From assembly GCA_964460695.1 (NCBI GenBank), contig CAYWSC010000011.1, forward strand, positions 1 to 14,528: a stretch of DNA of 14,528 nt, given 5' to 3'. Source of the stretch: Candidatus Hadarchaeota archaeon. GTDB lineage: Archaea > CAYQAE01 > CAYVLA01. The position numbers were made by a program, and so were the translations under genes. Position 1 is the stretch's first letter. Every line of letters starts with the position of its first letter. The notes beneath the pieces were generated by a model. That model ran no database searches, had not been told where the DNA came from, and saw only the letters and a program-made list of their open reading frames with translations. Below, piece after piece: positions 741 to 12,026 of this stretch.

Positions 741-1053
741 ACTCCCTCTTCCTCAGAATCCTTAGCAAGACGCATTTGAGCTTGTAGTTGTCCGAGGCGG
801 CGCTCCCGTTCTTAAGCTCGTACTCGACTGCGCCTAGAATGTCTTCGGTCTTGTTCTTTATCCCCTTTGCGAACATTCCCATGCTGCCCTTGCTGTACAG
901 GTCGGCTGACTGTTTGTACAGCTCGGCAGCCTTCTTGAGGAGAGCGACGCGCAGCTGGTGGTCGTTCTTCTCCTTGTATGCCTTTATCAGGCACATGTCT
1001 GCCTGTCCCTCAAGCCAAGAAGCTTTTCTGACGTGGTCGGCCTCGAACCTCAA
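724..1053 (-). CDS. Small hypothetical alpha-helical protein (MIT-/TPR-like three-helix pattern); convergent with the helicase and overlapping it by 17 nt
   Basis: 109-aa ORF with protein-like composition (KAYKEKNDHQLRVALLKKAAELYKQSADLY...IKNKTEDILGAVEYELKN). The antisense ORF 788..1138(+) is low-complexity and looks spurious. An AT-rich TATA-like element lies about 30-40 nt upstream at roughly 1080-1095. Confidence 0.45.
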   Translation of the reverse strand: MRFEADHVRKASWLEGQADMCLIKAYKEKNDHQLRVALLKKAAELYKQSADLYSKGSMGMFAKGIKNKTEDILGAVEYELKNGSAASDNYKLKCVLLRILRKREFRRRF

Positions 1054-1079
1054 GCTAGCACCGGGCGCGAAATGGAGGC

Positions 1080-1096
1080 TGTTGAAATATAAATCT
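1080..1096 (-). promoter_or_regulatory. Candidate archaeal TATA-like element (TTTATATTTC on the minus strand) upstream of the small gene starting at 1053
   Basis: This is the only AT-rich block in an otherwise GC-rich intergenic region, at the right distance upstream of the start codon. Confidence 0.3.
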
Positions 1097-1185
1097 TATT
1101 TCGAATTTGAAAAGTTGCCGATTAATTTTCGCCGGTAACGCTACGAAACTACAACTCTCACAATGTCTCGCTGGCAACACGGCGT

Positions 1186-2031
1186 CTAGGGCATCAGCCT
1201 CAGCTTGAAGTCTATGGCCCTCGGGGAGTGGGTCAGCAACCCTATCGAGATGACATCCACCCCCAGCCTAGCGAGCTCCCTCACCTCCTCGAGCGATACG
1301 TTGCCGGATGCCTCCACCGTGACGGAGTCTCTAAGGCCTCTCTCCTTGAGAAGATCCAAGGCGGCAGAGATCTCCTCTCTAGACATATTGTCAAGCATCA
1401 CTATGTCGGCCCCCGCCTCCGCCGCAGCTGCTGCTCCGTCTGGACTGCTAACCTCCACCTCGATCTTCCGCACGAAGCTCGCCCTGCCCTTGGCCGCCTG
1501 GACGCAGGAGGACACGTCGCCGAAAGCCCTCACATGGTTGTCCTTGATCAGAACGCAGTCATGGAGAGCCATCCTATGGGTATCCCCGCCTCCCAGCTCG
1601 ACGGCCCGCTTGTCGAGCCACCTAAGGCCTGGGGCAGTCTTCCTAGTGGCAGCCACCTTCACATCGGGATTGCCGAGACGTGCCTCCTCGGCGAACCTGG
1701 AGGTGAGGGTCGCTATGCCGCTCATCCTCGAAAGAATGTTGAGAAGCGACCTCTCAAGAACCAAGATGGAGTCTTCTTTGCCGTGGAGTTCCAGCACGGT
1801 CTCGTCAGCCTTCACCCTCTCTCCATCCCCGCGAAGGGGCTCGCATTCCACCTCGAACATCTCTGCCAGTTCCAGCGACTCCCTGACTCCGGCTAGGACG
1901 CATTCCTCCCTCGGGAAGACCTCCGCCTCCACAACCACGGGCCTTGCCAGAATCTCCGTTGTCAGATCGCCGAAGTAGAGGTCCTCCTCAAGTATCCTCA
2001 AAAGCCTCTTTCTCAGGATCGGGTCTGCCAT
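1186..2031 (-). CDS. nadC: Nicotinate-nucleotide pyrophosphorylase (carboxylating) / quinolinate phosphoribosyltransferase
   Basis: 281 aa. The N-terminus LRILEEDLYFGDLTT and the central RKTAPGLRWLDKRAV...DNMS region are typical QPRTase. It is the last gene of the nadX-nadA-nadC cluster and sits only 2 nt from the nadA stop. Confidence 0.9.
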   Translation of the reverse strand: MADPILRKRLLRILEEDLYFGDLTTEILARPVVVEAEVFPREECVLAGVRESLELAEMFEVECEPLRGDGERVKADETVLELHGKEDSILVLERSLLNILSRMSGIATLTSRFAEEARLGNPDVKVAATRKTAPGLRWLDKRAVELGGGDTHRMALHDCVLIKDNHVRAFGDVSSCVQAAKGRASFVRKIEVEVSSPDGAAAAAEAGADIVMLDNMSREEISAALDLLKERGLRDSVTVEASGNVSLEEVRELARLGVDVISIGLLTHSPRAIDFKLRLMP

Positions 2032-2033
2032 CC

Positions 2034-3005
2034 TTACCTCCTCCCCAGATCCAGCATCCTCTGCGTCACCCTTCTCACGTCTCTCGCTATGGATGGATCG
2101 ACTTTGACCTCGTACTTATCGTTTTCTAGGGAATCTTTGAGCTTCTCCATGTCTATTGAGCGCATACCTCGGCACAGGGCCTCGCTGAGCGCAGGGAAGA
2201 ACCTCTTTTCGGGGAAGAGCCTGGCGAGGGTCTCGGCCATGGTGGCCTCGGTTCCGATGATGAACTCGTCGGCATCCGACTCCCGGGCCCTTGCAACCAT
2301 CCCCCCTGTGCTAACGACATAGTCAGCCAGGTCGACAACCTCTGGGTTGCATTCAGGATGGATGAGGATCTCGGCTGCCGGATGTATCCTCTTAGCCCTT
2401 TGTATGTCCTGCGTCGTAATCATCTTGTGCACGTAGCAGCCACCATCATCGGGAAGGGGTATGATGACCTTTTCCGGGAGCTGACTCTGAACGTACAGGG
2501 CCAGGTTCCTGTCGGGTCCAAACAGGATCTCCTCCTGCTCCAAGGACGAAACCACCTTCACGGCGTTTGCCGAGGTACATATCACGTCGGCCTCCGCCTT
2601 CGCCGAGGCTAATGAGTTTATGTAGAGGACTACGGCAGCTTCTGGATGCTGCCGCCTGGCCGCCCTGACCTGTTCTGGCCTCAGCATCGCCGCCATATCG
2701 CAGATGGCACGCCGGCTAGGGACGTAGACATCCTTGTCGGGGTTGAGGACAGACGCGCTCTCCGCCATGAAGTCCACGCCGCAGAAGACTATCCTTTCGA
2801 ATCCCTTTGATCGCGATGCGGCCATACATAACTCTAGGGAGTCCCCCACGTGGTCCGAGACCTCCTGTATCTCGGTCGGCTGATAGTTATGGCAGAGTAT
2901 CAGCGCTTTCTTCTCCTTCTTGAGCCGAAGAACTGCCTCTTTCAGGCCTTTCCTGTCAACCAATCTCAACATCGACCTAGGTCCCGATAACGATGCTTTC
3001 CTCAA
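2034..3005 (-). CDS. nadA: Quinolinate synthase A
   Basis: 323 aa with NadA hallmarks: ALILCHNYQ, FCGVDFMAE, ILIHPEC, TGGM. The called start at 3005 overlaps nadX by 29 nt. An in-frame ATG at 2972 (MLRLVDRKG...) is an alternative start that would remove the overlap. Confidence 0.9.
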   Translation of the reverse strand: MRKASLSGPRSMLRLVDRKGLKEAVLRLKKEKKALILCHNYQPTEIQEVSDHVGDSLELCMAASRSKGFERIVFCGVDFMAESASVLNPDKDVYVPSRRAICDMAAMLRPEQVRAARRQHPEAAVVLYINSLASAKAEADVICTSANAVKVVSSLEQEEILFGPDRNLALYVQSQLPEKVIIPLPDDGGCYVHKMITTQDIQRAKRIHPAAEILIHPECNPEVVDLADYVVSTGGMVARARESDADEFIIGTEATMAETLARLFPEKRFFPALSEALCRGMRSIDMEKLKDSLENDKYEVKVDPSIARDVRRVTQRMLDLGRR

Positions 3006-3762
3006 TGCCTTGAATGGCCCTCATCACGGACAGGGCGGCTAGGTAGCTCGTTCTGGGATTGTCCGGCGAGGGGAGATTGGAGATGAAGAACTTTGCCTCT
3101 CCGAAAGCCCCCTTAACCTCCACTTCGTGCACGTTGGTCCTAATCTTTGGGTCTACAAAGATCCTCACGTGAGGCCTCACACCGGACGCAATGGCTAGGG
3201 CAGCTGCAACATTGATGTTCCTCGGATAGAGCTCCACTGCCCTCTCCACGCTTCCCTCGAAAACAAGCCTGCGCTCAGTCGTCTCTTCCATGCCCAGACT
3301 GGCAGGATTCTTGGTAGTGGTGAGGGTGATGCTCTCTATCCCCCCTAGCGATCCCGCCTTGAGAACATCGAGTCCGCCGATCGCCCCCGATGGCACAATG
3401 ATCTTGCACCCATGCTCGCTCGCCAGTGACACCAGCCTTGCCCTCAACCCGTCGTCGAGGAGTGCACCGACGCTGAGAACCATCAGGTCTTTTCCGGACC
3501 TCAGAACCCTTTCGGAGTACTGCTTCACCGCGTCCACGCTCGCAGCTTCAACGACCAGCTGAACCTCACTCTTCATGAACTCGTCGAAGCTCTCCTTGGC
3601 CAGCGAGGGATCCCCAAGACGGTGGGCAAGTAGCTTTGACCGGTCGACCTTCGAGTCAAAAAGTGCCCCTATCGAGGCGCGTATCTTTCCCTCTCTCACG
3701 GCCTTTGCGACTAGACTCCCGACGTTGCCGCATCCGATAAGGCCTATGATCGTACCTCTCAC
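2977..3762 (-). CDS. nadX: L-aspartate dehydrogenase (NAD(P)-dependent), first enzyme of the NadX route to iminoaspartate
   Basis: 261 aa, GTG start. An N-terminal Rossmann motif IGLIGCGNVG is followed by aspartate-dehydrogenase-type sequence. It lies directly upstream of nadA and nadC on the same strand. Confidence 0.85.
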   Translation of the reverse strand: MRGTIIGLIGCGNVGSLVAKAVREGKIRASIGALFDSKVDRSKLLAHRLGDPSLAKESFDEFMKSEVQLVVEAASVDAVKQYSERVLRSGKDLMVLSVGALLDDGLRARLVSLASEHGCKIIVPSGAIGGLDVLKAGSLGGIESITLTTTKNPASLGMEETTERRLVFEGSVERAVELYPRNINVAAALAIASGVRPHVRIFVDPKIRTNVHEVEVKGAFGEAKFFISNLPSPDNPRTSYLAALSVMRAIQGIEESIVIGT

Positions 3763-3903
3763 TTCCTCAAATATAGGGCTCGCGGCGACGGCGGGCTATT
3801 AATGTATCTCAAAACCGCCATGCACTCCTTGAGGGGACACCCAGAGTGGGATTCCAAGCAACAGAGCCATGTCTCGACCGTTCAGTTACGGCCTAGCCTA
3901 ACC

Positions 3904-4326
3904 CTAGCTGCCCCTAGCCTGAACCTCCATGATCTTCTCCAAGAGCTCTAGGAGCTCAGAGAGGGCCTTGCAGTCTCCTTGAACCTCGACCCAGTCGCGG
4001 CCACTCGAAAGCTTCTCAGAATACTCCGAGATCTTCTGAACCACGGAGGCTCTCGCCTTCGAGAGAACTTCTTCGACATCTGGGGCCCCACGCTCCTCCC
4101 GGGGCTCGCCCTTCTTCTCTTCGACGGCCTTTCGAGGGGGCTCCTCCTCTTTTGGAGCCTTAGACTCCTTTTCCACCGAGGGTTTTCTCTTCTCTGCCTC
4201 CCACCCGCATCTAGGGCAGAAAGTCCTTCCCTGATACTGGAACAGGGGAGCGTTACACTTGGGGCAGCTCCTGTTAAGCATCTTCCCCCCTTTGAGAAGG
4301 ATCTCAGCCATGTCCTTTATCTCCAT
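3904..4326 (-). CDS. UPF0148 family zinc-ribbon protein (Sjogren syndrome/scleroderma autoantigen-1/p27-like, Auto_anti-p27 fold)
   Basis: MAEILLKGGKMLNRSCPKCNAPLFQYQGRTFCPRCG has a C4 zinc ribbon preceded by the conserved LL+G.+ML helix; the family is established knowledge. The ORF track extends the gene to 4389, where its ATG overlaps the neighbouring start by 1 nt. I prefer ATG 4326 (MEIKD...) or 4311 because that leaves a roughly 60-bp divergent promoter region containing TATA-like elements. Confidence 0.7.
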   Translation of the reverse strand: MEIKDMAEILLKGGKMLNRSCPKCNAPLFQYQGRTFCPRCGWEAEKRKPSVEKESKAPKEEEPPRKAVEEKKGEPREERGAPDVEEVLSKARASVVQKISEYSEKLSSGRDWVEVQGDCKALSELLELLEKIMEVQARGS

Positions 4327-4388
4327 GTGAACCGCCGAAAAGAGATTTATAGGTTCCACCTTAAAGCTTTGCTCAGGAGGGCTCTTCA
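4327..4388. promoter_or_regulatory. Putative shared divergent promoter region of the UPF0148/UPF0147 pair
   Basis: On the minus strand, CCTATAAATC (plus coordinates about 4340-4349) lies about 20-35 nt upstream of the 4326/4311 ATGs. On the plus strand, TTAAAGCTTT (about 4361-4370) lies about 25 nt upstream of the 4389 start. Confidence 0.3.
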
Positions 4389-4646
4389 TTGGACGTTGAG
4401 GAAAGGATAAACGCAGTCGCGCGGGTTCTTGAGCAGATCACTGAGGATACTTCCGTTCCAAGAAACATCAGGCGGGCAGCCAAAGAGGCCTACGACTGGC
4501 TTCAGGACAAGTCCCACACACCCGGTGTCAGGGCAAGTTCGGCCGTAAATATCCTGGACGAGATAAGCGAAGACCCCAACATGCCCGTTCACACCAGGAC
4601 GATGATCTGGAACATCGTCAGCGAACTGGAAGTGATAAAGGATTAA
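4389..4646 (+). CDS. UPF0147 family protein (small conserved archaeal protein, function unknown)
   Basis: 85 aa, ...TSVPRNIRRAAKEAYDWL..., characteristic of archaeal UPF0147. It uses a TTG start as called and is divergent from the UPF0148 gene, an arrangement recurrent in archaeal genomes. Confidence 0.65.
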   Translation: MDVEERINAVARVLEQITEDTSVPRNIRRAAKEAYDWLQDKSHTPGVRASSAVNILDEISEDPNMPVHTRTMIWNIVSELEVIKD

Positions 4647-4811
4647 CGCCCGCGTCGGATTCTCGCCGCCCATAGGGCTGACGGACGTGGACATCAGTAG
4701 ATAACGTACTCAATTATGTAGAAGACCATGGCCAGCACAATGGCCCAGTACAAAATGCTGAAATAAAGGAACCTCACTCGCTGTCCACCGACCCAACCCC
4801 CGCCCATTTGG

Positions 4812-4866
4812 CTTAAAAATATTTTCTAGCCTTTAAAAGGGAAGAGAACGGCTGCTTTTTTCCTCT
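4812..4866. terminator. Bidirectional oligo-T/oligo-A terminator region between convergent genes
   Basis: ttaaaaatattttct and gctgcttttttcctctt are T-runs on the plus strand downstream of the UPF0147 gene. Their complements give T-runs on the minus strand downstream of the 4873 stop. Archaeal termination at oligo-T tracts is established knowledge. Confidence 0.35.
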
Positions 4867-4872
4867 TATGCC

Positions 4873-5448
4873 CTACGGAGTCCGCTCCGCCCTCTTTTTC
4901 AGGATCCTGTAGCTCTCCACTTTTTTCCCATCTTCAGCGGCGTCCAGAATCACGCTACAGACGTAGAATAGTGCAGGGTGAACCATGTTCTCCACGGACT
5001 CTGTCCTCCTGGCATCTTCGAGGAGGAGGACCGCGGAACTTTTGGACAGACCAAGCAACGCGGGGCCGAGTCGCGTCCAGAGCTCCTTCTTCTCCTCAAA
5101 TCGAGCCACAATCTCAAAGGACGAGACGAGAGATCCTGCCCGGTTTATCACCAACAGCTGGATATCGGCCAGCCTTGCCATGGATCTTACTGCCAGAAGG
5201 ATCTGCTCCACACTTTCAGGGTGTCCGATCAGGATTCTACTGGAAGCCTGCTGCGAAATCCCGGAGAGAGAAATCGTCCGGTCACAGTCCAACAGGGCCG
5301 CGCGTCCACCGCCATCGACAGCCTTCGAGGCAGCCAGAAGAGCTAGCTCAATGTTTGCCCTCGGATGGTAGCCCAGAGCGAGAGAAATCCCAGACCCCAG
5401 AACAAGATGTGCCGCCTCATCCAGAGGCAGGAGGCCATCGTTACTCAT
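4873..5448 (-). CDS. RecA-superfamily (KaiC-/RadA-like fold) protein with a degenerate Walker A, a putative pseudo-ATPase
   Basis: The layout follows the KaiC/RecA core (beta1-Ploop, ...LLVINRAGSLVSSFE Walker-B-like strand, ...LLLEDARR...). The P-loop position reads LVLGSGISLALGY, with no GK[ST]. The start is probably ATG 5448 (MSNDG...) with AAGGTG 5 nt upstream. The ORF track extends to GTG 5520. Confidence 0.45.
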   Translation of the reverse strand: MSNDGLLPLDEAAHLVLGSGISLALGYHPRANIELALLAASKAVDGGGRAALLDCDRTISLSGISQQASSRILIGHPESVEQILLAVRSMARLADIQLLVINRAGSLVSSFEIVARFEEKKELWTRLGPALLGLSKSSAVLLLEDARRTESVENMVHPALFYVCSVILDAAEDGKKVESYRILKKRAERTP

Positions 5449-5755
5449 CGCGGCACCTTTCGAATGGGGGATAGCCCGGTACGGATTTCCGGCCTCTCTG
5501 GCTTTCGAACCGCAGTCCACGGATATCTCCGAGCCTCACTCACCAGAGTCCGTGATGCTTCCGTGGGGGCCTTGCTCCCTGACCACTACACCACCGGGCT
5601 ATCTGTCATAATTTGGTCCAGATCATTCTTAACTATTTCCGGCATTCGCGTTTAGGTCTTTTTGCCCCCTCTCACACGGCGGCTGGGACGAACAACGAGA
5701 AAAGAGATATTAGAGAAATGAGGGGTCCTCGCCACGAGGTGTCTCGTTGGCGAAG

Positions 5756-6772
5756 ATGAAACAAGCTAACCTCGTGGCGACCGAGAAGATCGTAATAGAG
5801 GAGGCCGAAGTTCCCGAACCCGCGGAGAACGAGGTTCAGATAAAGGTGGCCGTCTGCGGCATCTGCGGCTCCGACGTGCACGCATACCACGGCCGGCATC
5901 CCTTCGTCCACCCGCCAATCGTTCCCGGTCACGAATTCTCGGGGACCGTCTCGAAGTTGGGCGAAGGGGTGGAAGGACTTGAGGTCGGTGACAGAGTGGT
6001 CGTCGAGCCATCCCTCACCTGTGGGAAATGCTTCAACTGTAAGACGGGCAGGTACAACATCTGCACCGAACTCAAGGTACTCGGCTGTCAGGCACCAGGT
6101 GCCTTTGCCCAGTACATCGTCGTCCCTGCTAACAAGGTCTACAAGATGCCGGAGGGCATGACCTTCGACCAGGGAGCCCTCATCGAGCCGGCTGCCGTCG
6201 GAGTTCACGCCGTCCGGAGAAGCGAGATATCGCTCGGCGACAGAGTGGTGGTTCTAGGAGCGGGCGTGATAGGACTGATGATCATGCAGGCTGCTAGGGC
6301 CGCCGGTGCAGGGGAGATCATCATAACTGGTCATCACGAGGAGCGTCTGGCCGTCGCAAGGAAGCTCGGAGCCGACGTGACGTTCCTCGCCGGCGACACG
6401 GTCAAGTTCATAAGAGACAGATATGGCCCTGACGGGATAGACATAGTCTACGAGGCAGTCGGCGTGGGAACCACGATCAATGAGGCGATCGAGATAGCTC
6501 GGAAGGGGACCAAGATCGTTGTCGTTGGCGTCTTCGGCCAAGACCCACCCACCAAGATTGGTCTAGTTCAGGACCACGAGATAGATATGCGGGGATCGCT
6601 GATGTACGTGAACGAGGACTACCCGAGGACCCTCGAGCTCGTCTCCTCGGGCAGGATCCAGACAGACCCACTGGTCAGCGCAAGATACCCCCTTGAGAAG
6701 ATAGCTGACGGATTCAAACATATCCGGGAGAAGAGGGGAGAGACCCTCAAGGTCCTAGTCGACATCCCGTAG
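5756..6772 (+). CDS. Zinc-dependent medium-chain alcohol/polyol dehydrogenase (threonine/sorbitol dehydrogenase-like)
   Basis: Catalytic Zn ligands CGICGSDVH and GHEFSG; structural-Zn Cys cluster CGKCFNCKTGRYNIC; Rossmann motif VVLGAGVIGLM. The called TTG start at 5747 (MAKMKQ) is less likely than ATG 5756 (MKQ...). Confidence 0.85.
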   Translation: MKQANLVATEKIVIEEAEVPEPAENEVQIKVAVCGICGSDVHAYHGRHPFVHPPIVPGHEFSGTVSKLGEGVEGLEVGDRVVVEPSLTCGKCFNCKTGRYNICTELKVLGCQAPGAFAQYIVVPANKVYKMPEGMTFDQGALIEPAAVGVHAVRRSEISLGDRVVVLGAGVIGLMIMQAARAAGAGEIIITGHHEERLAVARKLGADVTFLAGDTVKFIRDRYGPDGIDIVYEAVGVGTTINEAIEIARKGTKIVVVGVFGQDPPTKIGLVQDHEIDMRGSLMYVNEDYPRTLELVSSGRIQTDPLVSARYPLEKIADGFKHIREKRGETLKVLVDIP

Positions 6773-9700
6773 CCGGCCTCTCCTCGCCAACAGGCCCGCC
6801 AGCGGCAGAGAGACGACGAGTAGCAGACCGATCCATAGCGGGAGCTGCGATCCCTTGGGAACCGCGACACCGGCGTGGCCCGCGCCCCCTCCCTGCGACC
6901 CTGCAGGCTGGGGTCCGAACTTGGACTGAACCTCTCCCTTCACCTCGAAGGGTTGGGGAGGTGCCTCGGCGTTGTCCTCGGGCCTGTAGTACGAGTAGGC
7001 TCTGCTGGTTCCTCCCCTCGCCTTGACAGGCATAACCGCAAGTATCTGGAACTGTATCTCGATCTCCTCTCCCCTCTTGAGGTCGTCGATGTAGAAGATG
7101 ACCTTCCTAGCTGCGACCTCGACCCTGCTGGCCAAGCCCTCGGAGACCACCTTGTCAAGGGAGGACTGGATAACCGAGAACCCTGTCGGTACGGCGACGT
7201 CGAGTATCATCATGCCGGTAGAGTTGTGCGGTCCATTGTACCTGACCCGGGCCGTCACGCCCACCACATCGTTCACATCCGCGGTCGTCGTATTGTAGCT
7301 GACCTCGAACTCGAACTCCTTCTGCCCTGACGGTTCCCAAGGGACGTTGAACCTCTTGACGAGTTGGAACATCACCTTGCCGCCTCCCTCCAGCCTAAGC
7401 TCGAGCTCTTTCCCGCCGAGAGGTATGGATACGACGTTGAGCACGTCGAAATTGTCCCTCGTCAAGCGGAGAGACTGGATCTCCCTGCCGTCAACCACGA
7501 TGTGTATCACCGAGTCGATGTTTCTCGACTGGAGCCTAGCCGCAGTCATGAGAGCCTTCATAGCCATGACTGTATCCTGAGTGCTGCAGAATCCTCCCAG
7601 AGAGTTCCTCTGGGACGCTATCCACCGCACAGCCTGCTCGGCCTCGGATCGGCCCGCCAGCATGAGCGCCAGTGCCGCATAGGACGTCGCTTCTACGACG
7701 CCAGAGCTGCCGCCCTTGGCTGGCGACCAGTAAAGGCCGTTTTCGTCCGAGCTTGCGAGCTTGAGCAACTCCGAGATTGCCTCGTCCGCCTTGCTTGACC
7801 CCACCTTCTCCAACAGGTAGGCCGATATCGCCGCGGCGTACGGGTCACCCGTTCCCAGTCCATTCTCCTCGATGAATCGTATGCCCCGCTCCAAGGCCTC
7901 CGAGGCCCTCCCGTAGTCTGCCAGAGCTATCGAGACGAAAGAAGTGAGGGCAACCCTTGAGCCCGGATTTAGACCTCCCATCATCTCACCGTGAACGACG
8001 AACCCTACGGGACTCCAAGAGCCATTTGAATTCTGATGCGACTCTATCCAGTTGGCCGCGTCCGCCAGGACCTTCTCGTCTACCGCTAGAACCTCTCTCG
8101 CCTCGCTGAAGACATCGAGCACGAAGGCGGTCAGCCATAGGCTCCCCTCCTCGTCGCTTGAGCCAAACGCCGAGAAGGATCCGTCTCCTCTCCTAAAGGT
8201 CAGCTCCCTCTGGTAACCGGTGGTCAGATACAACTCCGCCTTTGCCCGTACCTCTGGAACGAGCTGATCGGTCGCGTCGAGGTACCTGAGTATCTCCAGA
8301 TCAGGGGCCATGAACATCATGTTCTGCTCTCCACAACCGTAGGGCATGCCGAGAAGGTCTTCTACCCCACTTATGACCTGCCCGACAAGGCTGGGCGTGA
8401 TGCTCACCATCACCCTAGCCGAGTCGTTGACAATCCCCTCTGGCAGGGAAAGGTCAAGCGTCGCAGGCTTCTCCTCTGTTATGAATCCGTTCACAACCTC
8501 CTCGCGGCGGACGCCCTCCGGCTCGACCAGCATCTCCCTCCGCACGGCATCCGCCCTCCTGGGCGACCGAGCAGTGATCTCGACTTTGAATTGACCGATC
8601 TTCACAGGCTTTATCATGAACGATACAGCGACGACGGAGTTCCCAGGGATCTGCACCGTCTTCACAGCTTCGTCGAGCAGGGTGAACCAGTCCGCGGGCG
8701 TTATCGAGACTTGGACTTTCTGGCTAGACGAGAGGTAGTTGTAGATCTGAACCATCACGGGAAACTCCTCGCCACGCGTCACGGCGTATGGAAGATCCGG
8801 CTCTACGAAGAAGTCCTGAAACACCCTGAGGGATGCCTCTGCCAACCCTATGCCCTCCGAGCTGGACGAGACGGCGTGAAGGCGCCAGGTAGTTATCGAG
8901 TCGGGGACCGTTAGCCGCAGAGTTGTATGGCCCGTATCGTCGGTCAACAGGGTTGCGTTCCAGTACCAAGTCTCGGGGAAGAACTGACGTATCCTCCTGA
9001 CCTCTGCCAGTCCCTCTTCAGTACCCTCGCTCTGAGGAGCTGACGAGTGGGCAAGATCCATTCCCGCTTCGGCCTCCCTGACCCCTCCTTTGGCATACAG
9101 GATCATCGCTCCCCCATATCCCTCGGGCAGTACGATGTCCTTCGAGGCTATGACCTGTAGCCCGGACTCTTCGAACACATCTCTGGCTCCCTTGGTCAGC
9201 GGAGCGCCCCAGAACCTCTCCTCGGGATGGGCCTCGGCCCTTGGCTCCATGAAGATCTTCTCAAGTTCGTCGAATATCTGCTTCAGATTGAGCCTGCCCT
9301 CGTTGAGCGCATAGACCGACTCATCGACAATTGACAGCCCTATCATGGTTGCAACGCCGCGGCTGGATCTGAGATCGATCAGGACTGTGTCCCCGGGTGA
9401 GGCTGTATCGTTCGAAAATTCAGCCGACAGCCCAACGGGCGCCTCGATCTCGACGTCAAAGGGTAGCGAGTCTGCCGATATCTCCATGTTCGGGTTTATG
9501 GTGTACACCACGATGCGTGCTCTGGGCATCATCGACGGCGTGACCTTGAAAGAGATGTATCTGCCGGTCGTGTACCCAGAGAACACGGCGCGCCCTCCCG
9601 CAACTACGTCGTAATAGAGGGTCCTCCTCCCAGTCGAGAAGACCTTGAATGTGACCTCGTCGCCGACCTTGACGGCTCCTTCGGAGGTTTGCCTGATGTG

Positions 9701-11023
9701 AATGAAGTACCCGCTGGGAGAGTACATGCTCCTAAGAGTTACACGGCTCTCGGCCTTGTCCTCCGGTACCTGGGCAACTACTTCCGCCGAGGTACACTTC
9801 TCCGGAACGTCGAACTCAATGAGGGCAGTTCCCCTGAATGTCGAGACATCCTTGCTCCTACTGATAGTCGACCCGTCGTCCAGCACGAACCTCGCCTCGA
9901 CTGAGACATGCTTCTCCATGGGCTCTCCGCCTGGCGTCTCGGTAACGACGAGGAGCTCCATGGGCAGGCCTGGCTTTATCGTCTCGGCAGAAGGGATAAG
10001 CTGAATCACGGTCGACGACGGGGCTATCTTGACAAGCCTAGATGCTTCTTCCTGGTGCCCAGATCCATCCGTAACGGTTACGTTCAGCATCACCGATCCC
10101 ATTCCACCGGCACCGTATGTCCCTGCTACATAGCTGACCGGGGGTAGGGTGAAGCTGAGCGATCCGTCTTCGAGTTCGCCCCTGAAGGATGCATACTGCT
10201 CCCACTCAGCCAGGTACTTGTAGGCCCTGACCTCTACCATTCCCTGAACGGGCTTCCCGAAGAAGTATCTACAATCGATTCTCCCGCTGATCTCCTCGTC
10301 CACTAGGAACCAGTCCCTCGGCAGAGCAACATCCACTTTGAACTTAGGGAGCACGTACTTCTCGACCCTGATGTCAACCGTGGACATAGAGTCGGTTCCC
10401 TGGGCGACGATCTTCCACGTCCCGAGGTTCACCTCCCTCGCCAAAACCATGTCGAAAGCAGCCACTCCAAACCCGTTGGTGACAAGTGGCTTTCTAAACA
10501 CCCTGATGCCCTTGGAGTCGGATATAGAGACGTTCAGGCTGACCGACACTGGTTTCAGGTCGGAGTTCACTGCAAGTACCCTGCCATGCACCGTCTGGCC
10601 AGGCTTGTATATCGGCTTGTCGGTCTCCAACAGGAGAGTGATGCCCGCAGAAATGGCGAGCTGACCCGTCAATTGCTCATGGGTCCTTGGATTTTCCAAG
10701 ACGATGGTGTAGGTCCCGCGTTGAAGGCGAGGCACGTGGAACCTGACCACCTGATGACCGTCAGGCCCAGTCCACCCCGAGAAGAGGTCGATCCGACTCC
10801 CTTTCAGATCCAGTATGTATATGTCGACGGGGGCGTTGACTGGACGGTTCGTCTTGACGGAAAGGGAGTCTACGGTCACTGATGCCTCCGTTCCCGTGTA
10901 GAGCGTCTTTGGCGCGACCATCACGTACCGGATGCCAGCCTCTCCCTTTCCCTGCAGAGAGGGAGAGACAATCTGCAGAAGGATGACCAGCACGACGAAG
11001 ACGGCTCCAGATGCCGGCTTCAC
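6755..11023 (-). CDS. Alpha-2-macroglobulin / thioester-containing protein (TEP) family, full length: MG domains, bait-like region, thioester domain, receptor-binding-like domain, with signal peptide and C-terminal TM anchor
   Basis: 1422 aa, GTG start preceded by GGGAGGTG. Canonical thioester GCGEQ (aa 896-900, nt 8324-8338) within PYGCGEQNMMFMAPDLEILRYL; downstream TGYQRELTFRRGDGSFSAFG and SLWLTAFVLDVF (thioester-domain helices). His1011 in VVHGEMMGG (nt 7991-7993) sits at the C3 catalytic-His position. MG2-like TDKPIYKPGQTV; post-bait FFPETWYWN...TVPDSITTWRL...ASLRVFQDFFVEPDLPYAVTRGEEF; C-terminal A2M_recep-like MMILDVAVPTGFSV. These are near-identical to the hallmark blocks of vertebrate A2M/C3. 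Confidence 0.92.
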   Translation of the reverse strand: MKPASGAVFVVLVILLQIVSPSLQGKGEAGIRYVMVAPKTLYTGTEASVTVDSLSVKTNRPVNAPVDIYILDLKGSRIDLFSGWTGPDGHQVVRFHVPRLQRGTYTIVLENPRTHEQLTGQLAISAGITLLLETDKPIYKPGQTVHGRVLAVNSDLKPVSVSLNVSISDSKGIRVFRKPLVTNGFGVAAFDMVLAREVNLGTWKIVAQGTDSMSTVDIRVEKYVLPKFKVDVALPRDWFLVDEEISGRIDCRYFFGKPVQGMVEVRAYKYLAEWEQYASFRGELEDGSLSFTLPPVSYVAGTYGAGGMGSVMLNVTVTDGSGHQEEASRLVKIAPSSTVIQLIPSAETIKPGLPMELLVVTETPGGEPMEKHVSVEARFVLDDGSTISRSKDVSTFRGTALIEFDVPEKCTSAEVVAQVPEDKAESRVTLRSMYSPSGYFIHIRQTSEGAVKVGDEVTFKVFSTGRRTLYYDVVAGGRAVFSGYTTGRYISFKVTPSMMPRARIVVYTINPNMEISADSLPFDVEIEAPVGLSAEFSNDTASPGDTVLIDLRSSRGVATMIGLSIVDESVYALNEGRLNLKQIFDELEKIFMEPRAEAHPEERFWGAPLTKGARDVFEESGLQVIASKDIVLPEGYGGAMILYAKGGVREAEAGMDLAHSSAPQSEGTEEGLAEVRRIRQFFPETWYWNATLLTDDTGHTTLRLTVPDSITTWRLHAVSSSSEGIGLAEASLRVFQDFFVEPDLPYAVTRGEEFPVMVQIYNYLSSSQKVQVSITPADWFTLLDEAVKTVQIPGNSVVAVSFMIKPVKIGQFKVEITARSPRRADAVRREMLVEPEGVRREEVVNGFITEEKPATLDLSLPEGIVNDSARVMVSITPSLVGQVISGVEDLLGMPYGCGEQNMMFMAPDLEILRYLDATDQLVPEVRAKAELYLTTGYQRELTFRRGDGSFSAFGSSDEEGSLWLTAFVLDVFSEAREVLAVDEKVLADAANWIESHQNSNGSWSPVGFVVHGEMMGGLNPGSRVALTSFVSIALADYGRASEALERGIRFIEENGLGTGDPYAAAISAYLLEKVGSSKADEAISELLKLASSDENGLYWSPAKGGSSGVVEATSYAALALMLAGRSEAEQAVRWIASQRNSLGGFCSTQDTVMAMKALMTAARLQSRNIDSVIHIVVDGREIQSLRLTRDNFDVLNVVSIPLGGKELELRLEGGGKVMFQLVKRFNVPWEPSGQKEFEFEVSYNTTTADVNDVVGVTARVRYNGPHNSTGMMILDVAVPTGFSVIQSSLDKVVSEGLASRVEVAARKVIFYIDDLKRGEEIEIQFQILAVMPVKARGGTSRAYSYYRPEDNAEAPPQPFEVKGEVQSKFGPQPAGSQGGGAGHAGVAVPKGSQLPLWIGLLLVVSLPLAGLLARRGRLRDVD
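6785..6844 (-). other. C-terminal transmembrane anchor of the A2M/TEP protein (LPLWIGLLLVVSLPLAGLLA) followed by the basic tail RRGRLRDVD; a Gly/Pro-rich linker (GPQPAGSQGGGAGHAGVAVPKGSQ) precedes it
   Basis: A single hydrophobic stretch of about 20 residues at the extreme C-terminus plus an Arg-rich tail. The tripartite signature resembles archaeal/bacterial C-terminal sorting or anchor signals but has no PGF/PEP motif. Confidence 0.55.
10949..11023 (-). other. N-terminal Sec-type signal peptide of the A2M/TEP protein (aa 1-25, MKPASGAVFVVLVILLQIVSPSLQG)
   Basis: A positively charged n-region (K2), a hydrophobic core of about 15 residues, and an SPSLQG cleavage-like site. The MG1-like domain begins immediately after. 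Confidence 0.6.
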
Positions 11024-11029
11024 ACATCA

Positions 11030-11037
11030 CACCTCCC
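11030..11037 (-). promoter_or_regulatory. Shine-Dalgarno sequence GGGAGGTG, 6 nt upstream of the GTG start of the A2M/TEP gene
   Basis: Read directly on the minus strand: ...gatGGGAGGTGtgatgtGTGAAGCCG... Confidence 0.55.
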
Positions 11038-11144
11038 ATCAAGCCCTGTATGATCCTCTCCTAGAATCTTCCCAATCTGACCAACCAGTCGAAGAACGGC
11101 TGACGAGTTTGGAGTCAAACTTCATTCACCTGACACAGCCTAGA

Positions 11145-11228
11145 TGAAACGATACATATTGTTTCCCTGAAACGGTTGGGAAACGGGGAGAGAAGCCGCA
11201 GCAAGCTCTATTTCAAGCTGAAACGATA
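11145..11228. repeat. Cluster of GAAACG[A/G] repeats upstream of the A2M/TEP gene: direct repeat TGAAACGATA x2 (11145-11154, 11219-11228) plus an inverted repeat GTTTCCC-N10-GGGAAAC (11161-11184) containing two GAAACGG copies
   Basis: Seen directly in the sequence. Four GAAACG copies fall within 84 bp of the 256-bp region between the stomatin stop and the A2M start. Confidence 0.5.
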
Positions 11229-11279
11229 GCAGTTGGCTACCCGCACCTGTCGGTGAGCCGTTGCCCATGACTGGGAAGT

Positions 11280-12026
11280 CTACTTCTCTAGGAACCTCAT
11301 CAGTTCCATGGGGACCGGCAAAACGACGGTCGTCGGCTTACCAGTGGTAGCATCGGTTATCGCTCCGAGCAGGCGAAGCTGAAGAGCTCCTGGGCTCTCG
11401 GTCATTATCTTCGTCGCCTTCGCGAGCATCTCTGCCGCCTGCTTCTCTCCTTGGGCTATTATCACCCTAGAACGCCTCTGCCTCTCTGCCTCTGCCTGCC
11501 GAGCCATCGCGACCTTCATCTCGTCGGGGACCTCTACGTTCTTCAGCTCGACTGCTGAGACCTTGATTCCCCAGGGATCCGTTGCTTCATCCACCGTCGC
11601 CTGTAGCCGCTTGTTCAACTCTTCCCTCTCGGTCAAGATCTGGTCGAGGAACGCCGTCCCTATGACGTTTCTCAAGCTCGTCTGGGCATAGAGAGAGGTC
11701 GCCGCGATGTAGTTGGTCACCTGGACAAGAGCCTTCTCCGGATCCATAACCCTCATGTACACCACTGCGTCCACACGAACAGGGACGTTGTCCCGGGTTA
11801 TGACCTCCTGGGCGGGAACATCAAGAACCATCGTCCTGAGATCAACCCTGATCATCTTCTCGAAGATCGGAATGATGAAGAAGAGGCCTGGCCCCCTTGC
11901 CCCTACGAGGCGTCCGAGTCTAAAGATCACGCCTCTCTCGTATTCCCTGACGATCTTTATCGCAGATGCGAGAATGATTAAAAGGAAGAAGACCAATGCA
12001 GACACTGGTGCTAGCCAACCAGCCAT
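11280..12026 (-). CDS. Stomatin/prohibitin-family (SPFH/band-7) membrane protein
   Basis: N-terminal TM helix (VSALVFFLLIILASAI) then an SPFH domain (IKIVREYERGVIFRLGR...PAQEVITRDNVPVRVDAVVYMRV) and a coiled-coil ARQAEAERQRR. No NfeD partner is adjacent. Confidence 0.85.
   Translation of the reverse strand: MAGWLAPVSALVFFLLIILASAIKIVREYERGVIFRLGRLVGARGPGLFFIIPIFEKMIRVDLRTMVLDVPAQEVITRDNVPVRVDAVVYMRVMDPEKALVQVTNYIAATSLYAQTSLRNVIGTAFLDQILTEREELNKRLQATVDEATDPWGIKVSAVELKNVEVPDEMKVAMARQAEAERQRRSRVIIAQGEKQAAEMLAKATKIMTESPGALQLRLLGAITDATTGKPTTVVLPVPMELMRFLEK

Follow-up and report, generated by a model that had tools for sequence, protein, structure and literature searches.

A CD109-like thioester protein with a predicted C-terminal membrane anchor in a Hadarchaeota locus, and its probable role as a protease trap

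What would a thioester protein of the alpha-2-macroglobulin/complement type do in an archaeon, and does its gene belong there? The question is raised by a 14,528-nt contig of a Candidatus Hadarchaeota archaeon (CAYWSC010000011.1, assembly GCA_964460695.1), here called the window, whose longest open reading frame (ORF), 6755-11023 on the minus strand, encodes a protein of the A2M/TEP family. An earlier reading of the sequence, here the original prediction, had described an intact thioester and a C3-type catalytic histidine, and had proposed either covalent capture of attacking proteases or tagging of foreign surfaces at the cell envelope. The gene identification is solid, and the family is not new: hundreds of prokaryotic genomes carry annotated members, and its presence in archaea had already been pointed out. 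We favor the first of the two proposed functions, and consider that the protein is probably a monomeric trap that captures proteases covalently at the outside of the archaeon's own membrane, similar to animal CD109. The main feature that distinguishes it from its relatives is a clade-specific C-terminal anchor.

The domains were called by Pfam-A with its curated cut-offs. The matches lie far above these thresholds, and as judged by them the ORF product is a full-length A2M/TEP-family protein with all superfamily domains, in agreement with the original prediction. The gene and its protein features are as follows.

6755-11023, minus strand: complete coding sequence of the 1422-aa thioester-containing alpha-macroglobulin family protein, GTG start, stop codon included.
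10949-11023, minus strand: signal-peptide-like N-terminus, aa 1-25, VKPASGAVFVVLVILLQIVSPSLQG, without a lipobox; pattern-based, cleavage site uncertain.
10649-10933, minus strand: predicted MG1 beta-sandwich, approximately aa 31-125, from strands in residues 6-100 of an AlphaFold2 (AF2) model; no Pfam model covers it.
10151-10630, minus strand: MG2 (PF01835, aa 132-219, E 1.5e-21) and MG3 (PF17791, aa 222-291, E 6e-13), from Pfam.
9305-9700, minus strand: A2M_BRD (PF07703, aa 442-573, E 1e-25), from Pfam.
8996-9223, minus strand: putative bait segment, aa 601-676, hypervariable, indel-rich and predicted to be disordered.
8705-8971, minus strand: A2M domain (PF00207, aa 685-773, E 6e-30), from Pfam.
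7547-8404, minus strand: thioester domain (TED, aa 874-1159), a predicted alpha/alpha toroid (TED_complement PF07678, E 4e-72; CD109, E 4.5e-63; helical in the model).
8324-8338, minus strand: thioester pentapeptide G-C-G-E-Q, aa 896-900 (Cys897, Gln900), invariant in 124/124 homologues.
7991-7993, minus strand: His1011, aligned with the catalytic His of C3 and CD109, invariant in 124/124 homologues.
6965-7222, minus strand: MG8, a receptor-binding-type domain (A2M_recep PF07677, aa 1268-1353, E 4.5e-16), from Pfam and the model.
6845-6964, minus strand: clade-specific linker, aa 1354-1393, with the invariant motif F-x-V-x-G-E-[VI]-x-S-[KR]-F-G followed by a Gly/Pro-rich spacer.
6758-6844, minus strand: predicted C-terminal transmembrane (TM) helix, aa 1394-1413, LPLWIGLLLVVSLPLAGLLA, with an invariant Pro at the helix start, then the basic tail RRGRLRDVD.

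The Pfam search, one of the checks suggested with the original prediction, thus recovered MG2, MG3, A2M_BRD, A2M, TED_complement and A2M_recep. Pfam gave no match to an anaphylatoxin or an NTR/C345C domain, and the length of the protein leaves no room for either, which bears out the absence of both that had been proposed; the bacterial MG domain bMG10 stayed below its cut-off (19.1 versus 26.2 bits). With 4 Cys in the window protein and a family median of 5, there is no disulfide scaffold.

The thioester pentapeptide sits within PYGCGEQNMMFMAPDLEILRYL, a block near-identical to human A2M in the alignment, and the thioester-domain segments TGYQRELTFRRGDGSFSAFG and SLWLTAFVLDVF are also present. 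His1011, in VVHGEMMGG, follows Gln900 by 111 residues. Each of these features is found at the residues originally given for it. The His1011 column holds His in human CD109 (VIHSELQGG) and in human C3 (VIHQEMIGG), and Asn in human A2M (LLNNAIKGG); the C3d sequence used for the C3 alignment was first confirmed to be identical to PDB 6rmt_A, and the TED of the window protein is 36% identical to C3d. G-C-G-E-Q-N and His1011 are both invariant among the 124 full-length homologues. The description of the protein as A2M architecture with C3 chemistry is therefore accurate as to its features, but these do not amount to an unusual hybrid: CD109 shares the His, and so does A2ML1, likewise a protease inhibitor, in which an acyl-imidazole formed with the His reacts with hydroxyl groups and also with amines (PMC9156758). 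Since both of these His-bearing proteins are inhibitors, the catalytic His alone does not indicate complement-like opsonization.

Two overlapping pieces of the window protein were modeled with AF2 from a 38-sequence alignment. The model of aa 676-1375 (mean predicted local distance difference test score, pLDDT, 82; predicted template-modeling score, pTM, 0.76) has the order beta-sandwich, helical toroid, beta-sandwich, and the beta segments flanking the alpha/alpha-toroid TED fit a TED inserted in a CUB domain. As judged by template-modeling scores (TMq), it resembles native A2M monomer (0.84), A2ML1 (0.82), native CD109 (0.81), C3 (0.78) and TEP1 (0.78), and fits activated forms poorly (approximately 0.35 for C3b and 0.42 for induced A2M). 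The model of aa 26-1225 (mean pLDDT 77, pTM 0.55) consists of serial MG sandwiches including MG1, and its only long low-confidence stretches, aa 576-609 and 636-671, fall in the bait region; Foldseek returned CD109 (E 6e-80), A2ML1 and A2M as its best matches, with E. coli ECAM at rank 49 and 13% identity. The predicted structures thus recover the MG and thioester-domain folds and superpose on human A2M and C3, as the original prediction had anticipated. A reading of the conformational state from the models was rejected: the C-terminal model is native-like and the aa 26-1225 model activated-like, but the latter lacks MG8 and has a pTM of 0.55.

The segment aa 601-676 lies between two highly conserved blocks, and has the lowest conservation and the most gaps of all internal segments in the 124 homologues; pLDDT is below 50 at aa 636-671. 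We computed the ratio of nonsynonymous to synonymous substitution rates (dN/dS) against a 92%-identical orthologue on an independent contig, and obtained values of 0.10 for the whole gene, 0.047 for the TED and 0.54 for the bait. The gene is under purifying selection and its reading frame is intact. Variability, indels, low model confidence and dN/dS together identify aa 601-676 as the putative bait region.

The mode of tethering varies by lineage among the same 124 homologues. Members from the Hadarchaeota-like clade of the window (11/124) have a signal-peptide-like N-terminus without a lipobox and a C-terminal extension, in which the F-x-V-x-G-E-[VI]-x-S-[KR]-F-G motif is followed by a Gly/acidic spacer, the invariant Pro, a hydrophobic helix of roughly 20 residues and a basic end; a C-terminal TM anchor occurs in this clade only. 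Lipobox-like N-termini are found in Methanosarcinales and Altiarchaeota members (59/124), and planctomycete members carry C-terminal dockerin-like or laminin-G extensions. The layout of the clade tail resembles sortase/archaeosortase-type sorting signals. No NCBIfam/CTERM model matched the tail even at E <= 10, however, and since no curated archaeosortase/CTERM model matches, we read it as a plain membrane anchor and take its conserved Pro motif as no more than a lead. The predicted location of the window protein is the cell envelope, held there by the C-terminal TM anchor; the predicted signal sequence and the anchor both support the envelope location that had been proposed.

Based on these observations, we propose the following sequence of events, in which export, thioester formation, bait cleavage, conformational change and protease inhibition are steps that we infer. 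The protein would be exported by means of its N-terminal signal sequence, and the C-terminal TM helix, joined to the rest of the chain by some 40 flexible residues, would keep it attached. It would fold into a body of MG1-MG8, CUB and TED with the Cys897-Gln900 thioester buried. An attacking endopeptidase would cleave the exposed, fast-evolving bait (about aa 601-676), and the resulting rearrangement of the body would expose the thioester, which His1011 may then convert into an acyl-imidazole able to react with nearby amine or hydroxyl groups. The protease would in this way end up bound covalently at the cell surface and blocked by steric hindrance, and the envelope proteins would be protected. 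A precedent is CD109, a membrane-anchored, monomeric inhibitor in which the bait is cut, a conformational change follows and the protease is conjugated through the thioester, with conjugation being required (PMC12927315). We favor protease trapping because the protein is tethered to its own cell in every lineage, a hypervariable bait is kept and effector partners are absent.

The last of these points rests on a comparison of gene neighborhoods, in which tblastn of the window neighbors against 82 loci and de novo clustering of 866 neighbor ORFs gave no recurrent partner gene across lineages, whether convertase-like, receptor-like, adhesion-related or other. A conserved partner analogous to pbpC was considered and rejected, as only within-clade or within-genus synteny was found; membership in a defense system was likewise rejected for lack of a PADLOC match. 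These results bear on whether the activated protein might instead be deposited covalently on foreign surfaces such as viruses, competitors or predators, marking or immobilizing them in the manner of complement or TEP1. The catalytic His common to C3 and invariant in the family would suit such a role, the acyl-imidazole route permits esterification of carbohydrate hydroxyl groups (PMC9156758), and Makarova et al. have speculated on complement-like immunity in archaea (PMC8416519). We nevertheless find tagging unlikely, and protease trapping the more likely of the two, because the protein is held on the producing cell in all lineages; moreover, the neighborhood has no conserved gene for an activating protease, a receptor or an effector, no PADLOC defense model matches, Pfam finds no anaphylatoxin or C345C domain, and the same His serves the protease inhibitors CD109 and A2ML1.

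Anchoring at the surface together with hydroxyl-reactive chemistry could also describe a covalent adhesin, whose thioester would bond the cell to a substrate, a matrix or a syntrophic partner, and the family is indeed common in aggregate-forming or sediment-dwelling groups (ANME-2, Methanosarcinales, Planctomycetota). We give this idea, which is speculative and without direct support, very little weight: the native fold buries the thioester, the protein keeps a hypervariable, protease-sensitive bait that an adhesin would not need, and no adhesion-related partner genes are conserved.

Several points weigh against a protease trap. The catalytic His is also a hallmark of the surface-tagging proteins C3 and C4B, which makes an opsonin-like or adhesive role possible. 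We found no biochemical data in the literature for any member of the prokaryotic GCGEQN family. The bait dN/dS of 0.54 was calculated from 19 substitutions, the signal peptide and the point of its cleavage were predicted from sequence patterns, and the models cover only parts of the protein, the 1200-aa model (pTM 0.55) being unusable for conformational state.

We next consider whether the gene is native to the archaeon. Its neighbors in the window encode aspartate dehydrogenase (NadX), NadA, NadC, a p27-type zinc ribbon protein, UPF0147, the C-terminal part of a helicase, a Band_7 protein, a Zn-dependent alcohol dehydrogenase (Zn-ADH) and transporters. The original prediction had described an archaeal housekeeping neighborhood, and the neighbors are as described, in a gene order shared with syntenic metagenome-assembled genomes (MAGs). 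Two further MAGs, with A2M proteins 64% and 58% identical to that of the window, keep the order Band_7 - A2M - (convergent) Zn-ADH, and in one of them UPF0147, the p27-type zinc ribbon, NadX-NadA-NadC and the helicase are retained as well. A Joint Genome Institute (JGI) metagenome contig from a different project, reached through P0122, a cluster mate of the window protein, matches window 1025-11591 at 92.2% identity in a single colinear alignment of 10,579 nt that spans both gene boundaries. The A2M gene has a GC fraction of 0.584 and a third-codon-position GC (GC3) of 0.728, and GC3 of its neighbors is 0.69-0.75. As judged by gene order and composition, the locus is a genuinely archaeal, vertically inherited neighborhood.

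An animal gene or a chimeric join in the metagenome contig, or a decaying gene, might be suspected from the short source contig (14.5 kb) and from the fact that the best solved relatives are animal proteins. Such an artefact is extremely improbable in view of the independent colinear contig that crosses both junctions, the gene order shared by the two further MAGs, GC and GC3 equal to those of the neighbors, the GTG start with a Shine-Dalgarno-like motif, the low Cys content relative to the Cys-rich animal proteins, and the intact frame with a whole-gene dN/dS of 0.10.

Two features mark the DNA upstream of the gene.

11030-11037, minus strand: Shine-Dalgarno-like motif GGGAGGTG, 6 nt 5' of the GTG start, read from the sequence.
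11145-11173, minus strand: conserved element GTTTCAGGGAAACAATATGTATCGTTTCA, with TATGTAT between two direct repeats of GTTTCA that are spaced 23 nt apart.

The 29-nt element has the form GTTTCA-N9-TATGTAT-N-GTTTCA, and its counterparts lie at 9906-9934 of locus L001 and 9897-9925 of locus L002. It is the sole conserved part of the 256-nt spacer between Band_7 and A2M, which has otherwise diverged among the three syntenic genomes. The element occurs once in the window, is matched in 0/200 shuffles, and among 83 loci is present only at the position upstream of a Hadarchaeota-like A2M gene. It may represent a TATA-like promoter box bracketed by a putative regulator site.

Other observations concern the surroundings of the gene. 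Immediately 5' of A2M and in the same orientation, 4/4 clade genomes carry the SPFH/Band_7 gene (11280-12026, minus strand), which is 83-85% identical in the two MAGs compared. Family members of other lineages do not have it as a neighbor, and no NfeD-type partner was seen. At the other end, the 3' ends of the A2M gene and the convergent Zn-ADH gene (5747-6772, plus strand) overlap by 18 nt (6755-6772), and the orthologues overlap as well, by 4 nt in L002 and 18 nt in L084. ORF 4873-5520 (minus strand, 215 aa) encodes a lineage-specific hypothetical protein with 40-42% identity in the syntenic MAGs and no Pfam or PADLOC match; locus L084 has an unannotated gene at this position. ORF 4386-4694 (minus strand) has no Pfam match at E <= 1e-3, its orthologues in L001 and L084 are annotated as UPF0147 (PF03685), and it probably begins further downstream than listed, giving 85 aa rather than 102 aa. 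No RNA genes were found in the window.

How widespread is the family, and how much of it was known? A word-indexed search gave 503 matches at E <= 1e-10, and a scan of one genome per species gave 487 relatives, with the closest species-level relative in a genome labeled Candidatus Hadarchaeota archaeon. Archaeal hosts are Methanolobus and Methanococcoides (both cultured), Methanomethylovorans, ANME-2, Methanoperedens, Altiarchaeales and Hadarchaeota; bacterial hosts are Sedimentisphaerales, Pirellulales, Phycisphaerae, Omnitrophota, Hydrogenedentota, Nitrospirales and Dehalococcoidia. The relatives are 41-65% identical to the window protein, with 93-100% of the query aligned. In RefSeq they go by 'alpha-2-macroglobulin family protein', and many members carry the JGI name 'CD109 antigen'; the Methanococcoides burtonii member is WP_011499743.1 (UniProt Q12VC6). 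On this similarity, the window protein is placed in a widespread, already annotated prokaryotic A2M family of the GCGEQN type. In the Sedimentisphaerales loci L047 and L049, a second, very divergent A2M-family paralogue is located near the first copy.

Makarova et al. (2021) reported archaeal A2M homologues, with TEDs containing an intact CxEQ in 27 proteins from 24 genomes, and considered those of Methanomicrobia to be similar to bacterial A2Ms and probably gained by transfer; their supplementary alignment includes WP_011499743.1 (PMC8416519). The suggestion that no such thioester protein had been characterized in an archaeon must accordingly be narrowed: members are annotated in Methanococcoides and Methanolobus and appear in that study, but we found no biochemical characterization of any archaeal member in the literature. 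Two 2026 reviews mention only metazoans and Gram-negative bacteria. A literature search for work on the M. burtonii protein, and on a possible prokaryotic ancestry of TEPs, returned nothing relevant.

To place the family relative to animal thioester proteins, an exhaustive HMMER search was made over 1.84 billion cluster representatives, which gave 17,547 matches at E <= 1e-3 and 3,393 at E <= 1e-30. Four groups were distinguished among the best 150 of these matches.

Low-Cys GCGEQN group, the family of the window: His in 27/30 representatives.
Animal TEP/CD109-type group (mosquito, snail, millipede, fish): full-length colinear similarity at 32-36% identity.
Very large low-Cys prokaryotic group with G-C-F-E-Q-T-S: the residue at the His column varies; P0160 versus human A2M only 238 bits.
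Smaller prokaryotic group with V-[ST]-G-C-G-E-Q-S (VSGCGEQS): Tyr or Trp at the His column.

The G-C-F-E-Q-T-S group (P0158-P0278, for example P0160, P0164 and P0180) makes up about 93 of the top 150 representatives; its members are 1450-1900 aa long, have a eukaryote-type Pfam domain set and are not ECAM-like by sequence, and many begin with anti-sigma-like (zinc-finger-type) or TM N-termini. The VSGCGEQS members are P0179, P0191, P0197, P0217, P0224, P0237, P0247, P0253 and P0269.

Neighbor-joining trees of 59 sequences (unrooted, distance-based, 50 bootstrap replicates) recovered the animal clade in 50/50 replicates, a GCGEQN supergroup of animals and two prokaryotic subgroups also in 50/50, and animals together with prokaryotic subgroup A in 49/50; no replicate (0/50) united all GCGEQN prokaryotes to the exclusion of animals. 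In a four-point test, 83% of 27,600 quartets supported animals plus subgroup A. The order along the unrooted tree is the CFEQ and CGEQS families, the family of the window, subgroup A and animals. One subgroup-A member adjoins a cytochrome-c oxidase operon in a bacterial contig. Within the family of the window only the Hadarchaeota-like clade is robust (60/60); archaeal monophyly, seen in one neighbor-joining tree, had a bootstrap of 2/60 and was dropped.

This order is compatible with animal TEPs having arisen within prokaryotic diversity, as an indication only, since in an unrooted tree the direction is undecidable and long-branch effects are possible. We therefore hold it as a tentative and somewhat doubtful suggestion that the GCGEQN/His family is part of the prokaryotic radiation that gave rise to CD109/iTEP, A2M and C3, and is not a recent copy of an animal gene. 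If so, complement-type thioester and His chemistry and the bait trigger would predate animals and would have been acquired from bacteria or archaea, which reverses the usual hypothesis that bacteria took A2M from metazoan hosts.

The position of the family next to animal TEPs thus bears on the origin of complement and TEPs. Knowledge of bacterial A2Ms comes entirely from the very distant ECAM/MagD types, and cultured hosts of the CD109-like family exist (Methanococcoides, Methanolobus). With no disulfide network and no need for glycosylation, the family could provide simple recombinant models of complement thioester and His chemistry. For archaeal cell biology, it suggests protection of the envelope against exogenous proteases in sediment communities.

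Finally, we compared the window protein with known systems. E. coli ECAM/YfhM and Salmonella A2M belong to the same superfamily and share the logic of a monomeric, envelope-tethered thioester protease trap. The similarity to ECAM/YfhM is marginal (TED E 0.004-0.017; 13% identity in the fold search), and the window protein lacks a lipobox, a pbpC neighbor (80 loci, no recurrent partner) and the extra N-terminal bacterial MG domains; unlike the YfhM-PbpC and Mag operons, its gene has no recurrent partner. Much closer are M. burtonii WP_011499743.1 and the Methanosarcinales/Planctomycetota family, with full-length similarity and the invariant GCGEQN and His. They differ in having N-terminal lipoboxes or dockerin-like tails, whereas the window clade has the TM anchor, the tail motif and the upstream element.

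Among animal proteins, C3/C4 and insect TEP1 share the aligned His, a TED 36% identical in the case of C3d, and a TMq of 0.78 to native C3 and TEP1, but the window protein has no anaphylatoxin or C345C domain and no convertase partners, and is tethered where they are soluble. A2ML1, a monomer with the catalytic His, conjugates proteases by way of both hydroxyl and amine groups (PMC9156758; TMq 0.82), whereas A2M has Asn at the His position and forms a tetrameric cage; both are soluble disulfide-rich glycoproteins, unlike the window protein. CD109 (PDB 8s3o, 9fx2, 9fx3) is the best solved relative, with E 6e-128 over aa 127-1317 and 4.5e-63 for the TED. It is not an orthologue, as the animal sequences form a separate clade (50/50 replicates), and identity is about 27-32%, with 4 Cys in the window protein. 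CD109 is GPI (glycosylphosphatidylinositol)-anchored and its MG8 is furin-processed, whereas the window protein has a predicted TM helix with a basic tail and no polybasic site before MG8; given the lack of furin-type processing there, release from the anchor would not be expected. The two proteins share the MG1-8, CUB and TED body free of anaphylatoxin and C345C domains, GCGEQN with a catalytic His about 110 residues after the Gln, and a membrane tether at the C-terminus after MG8.

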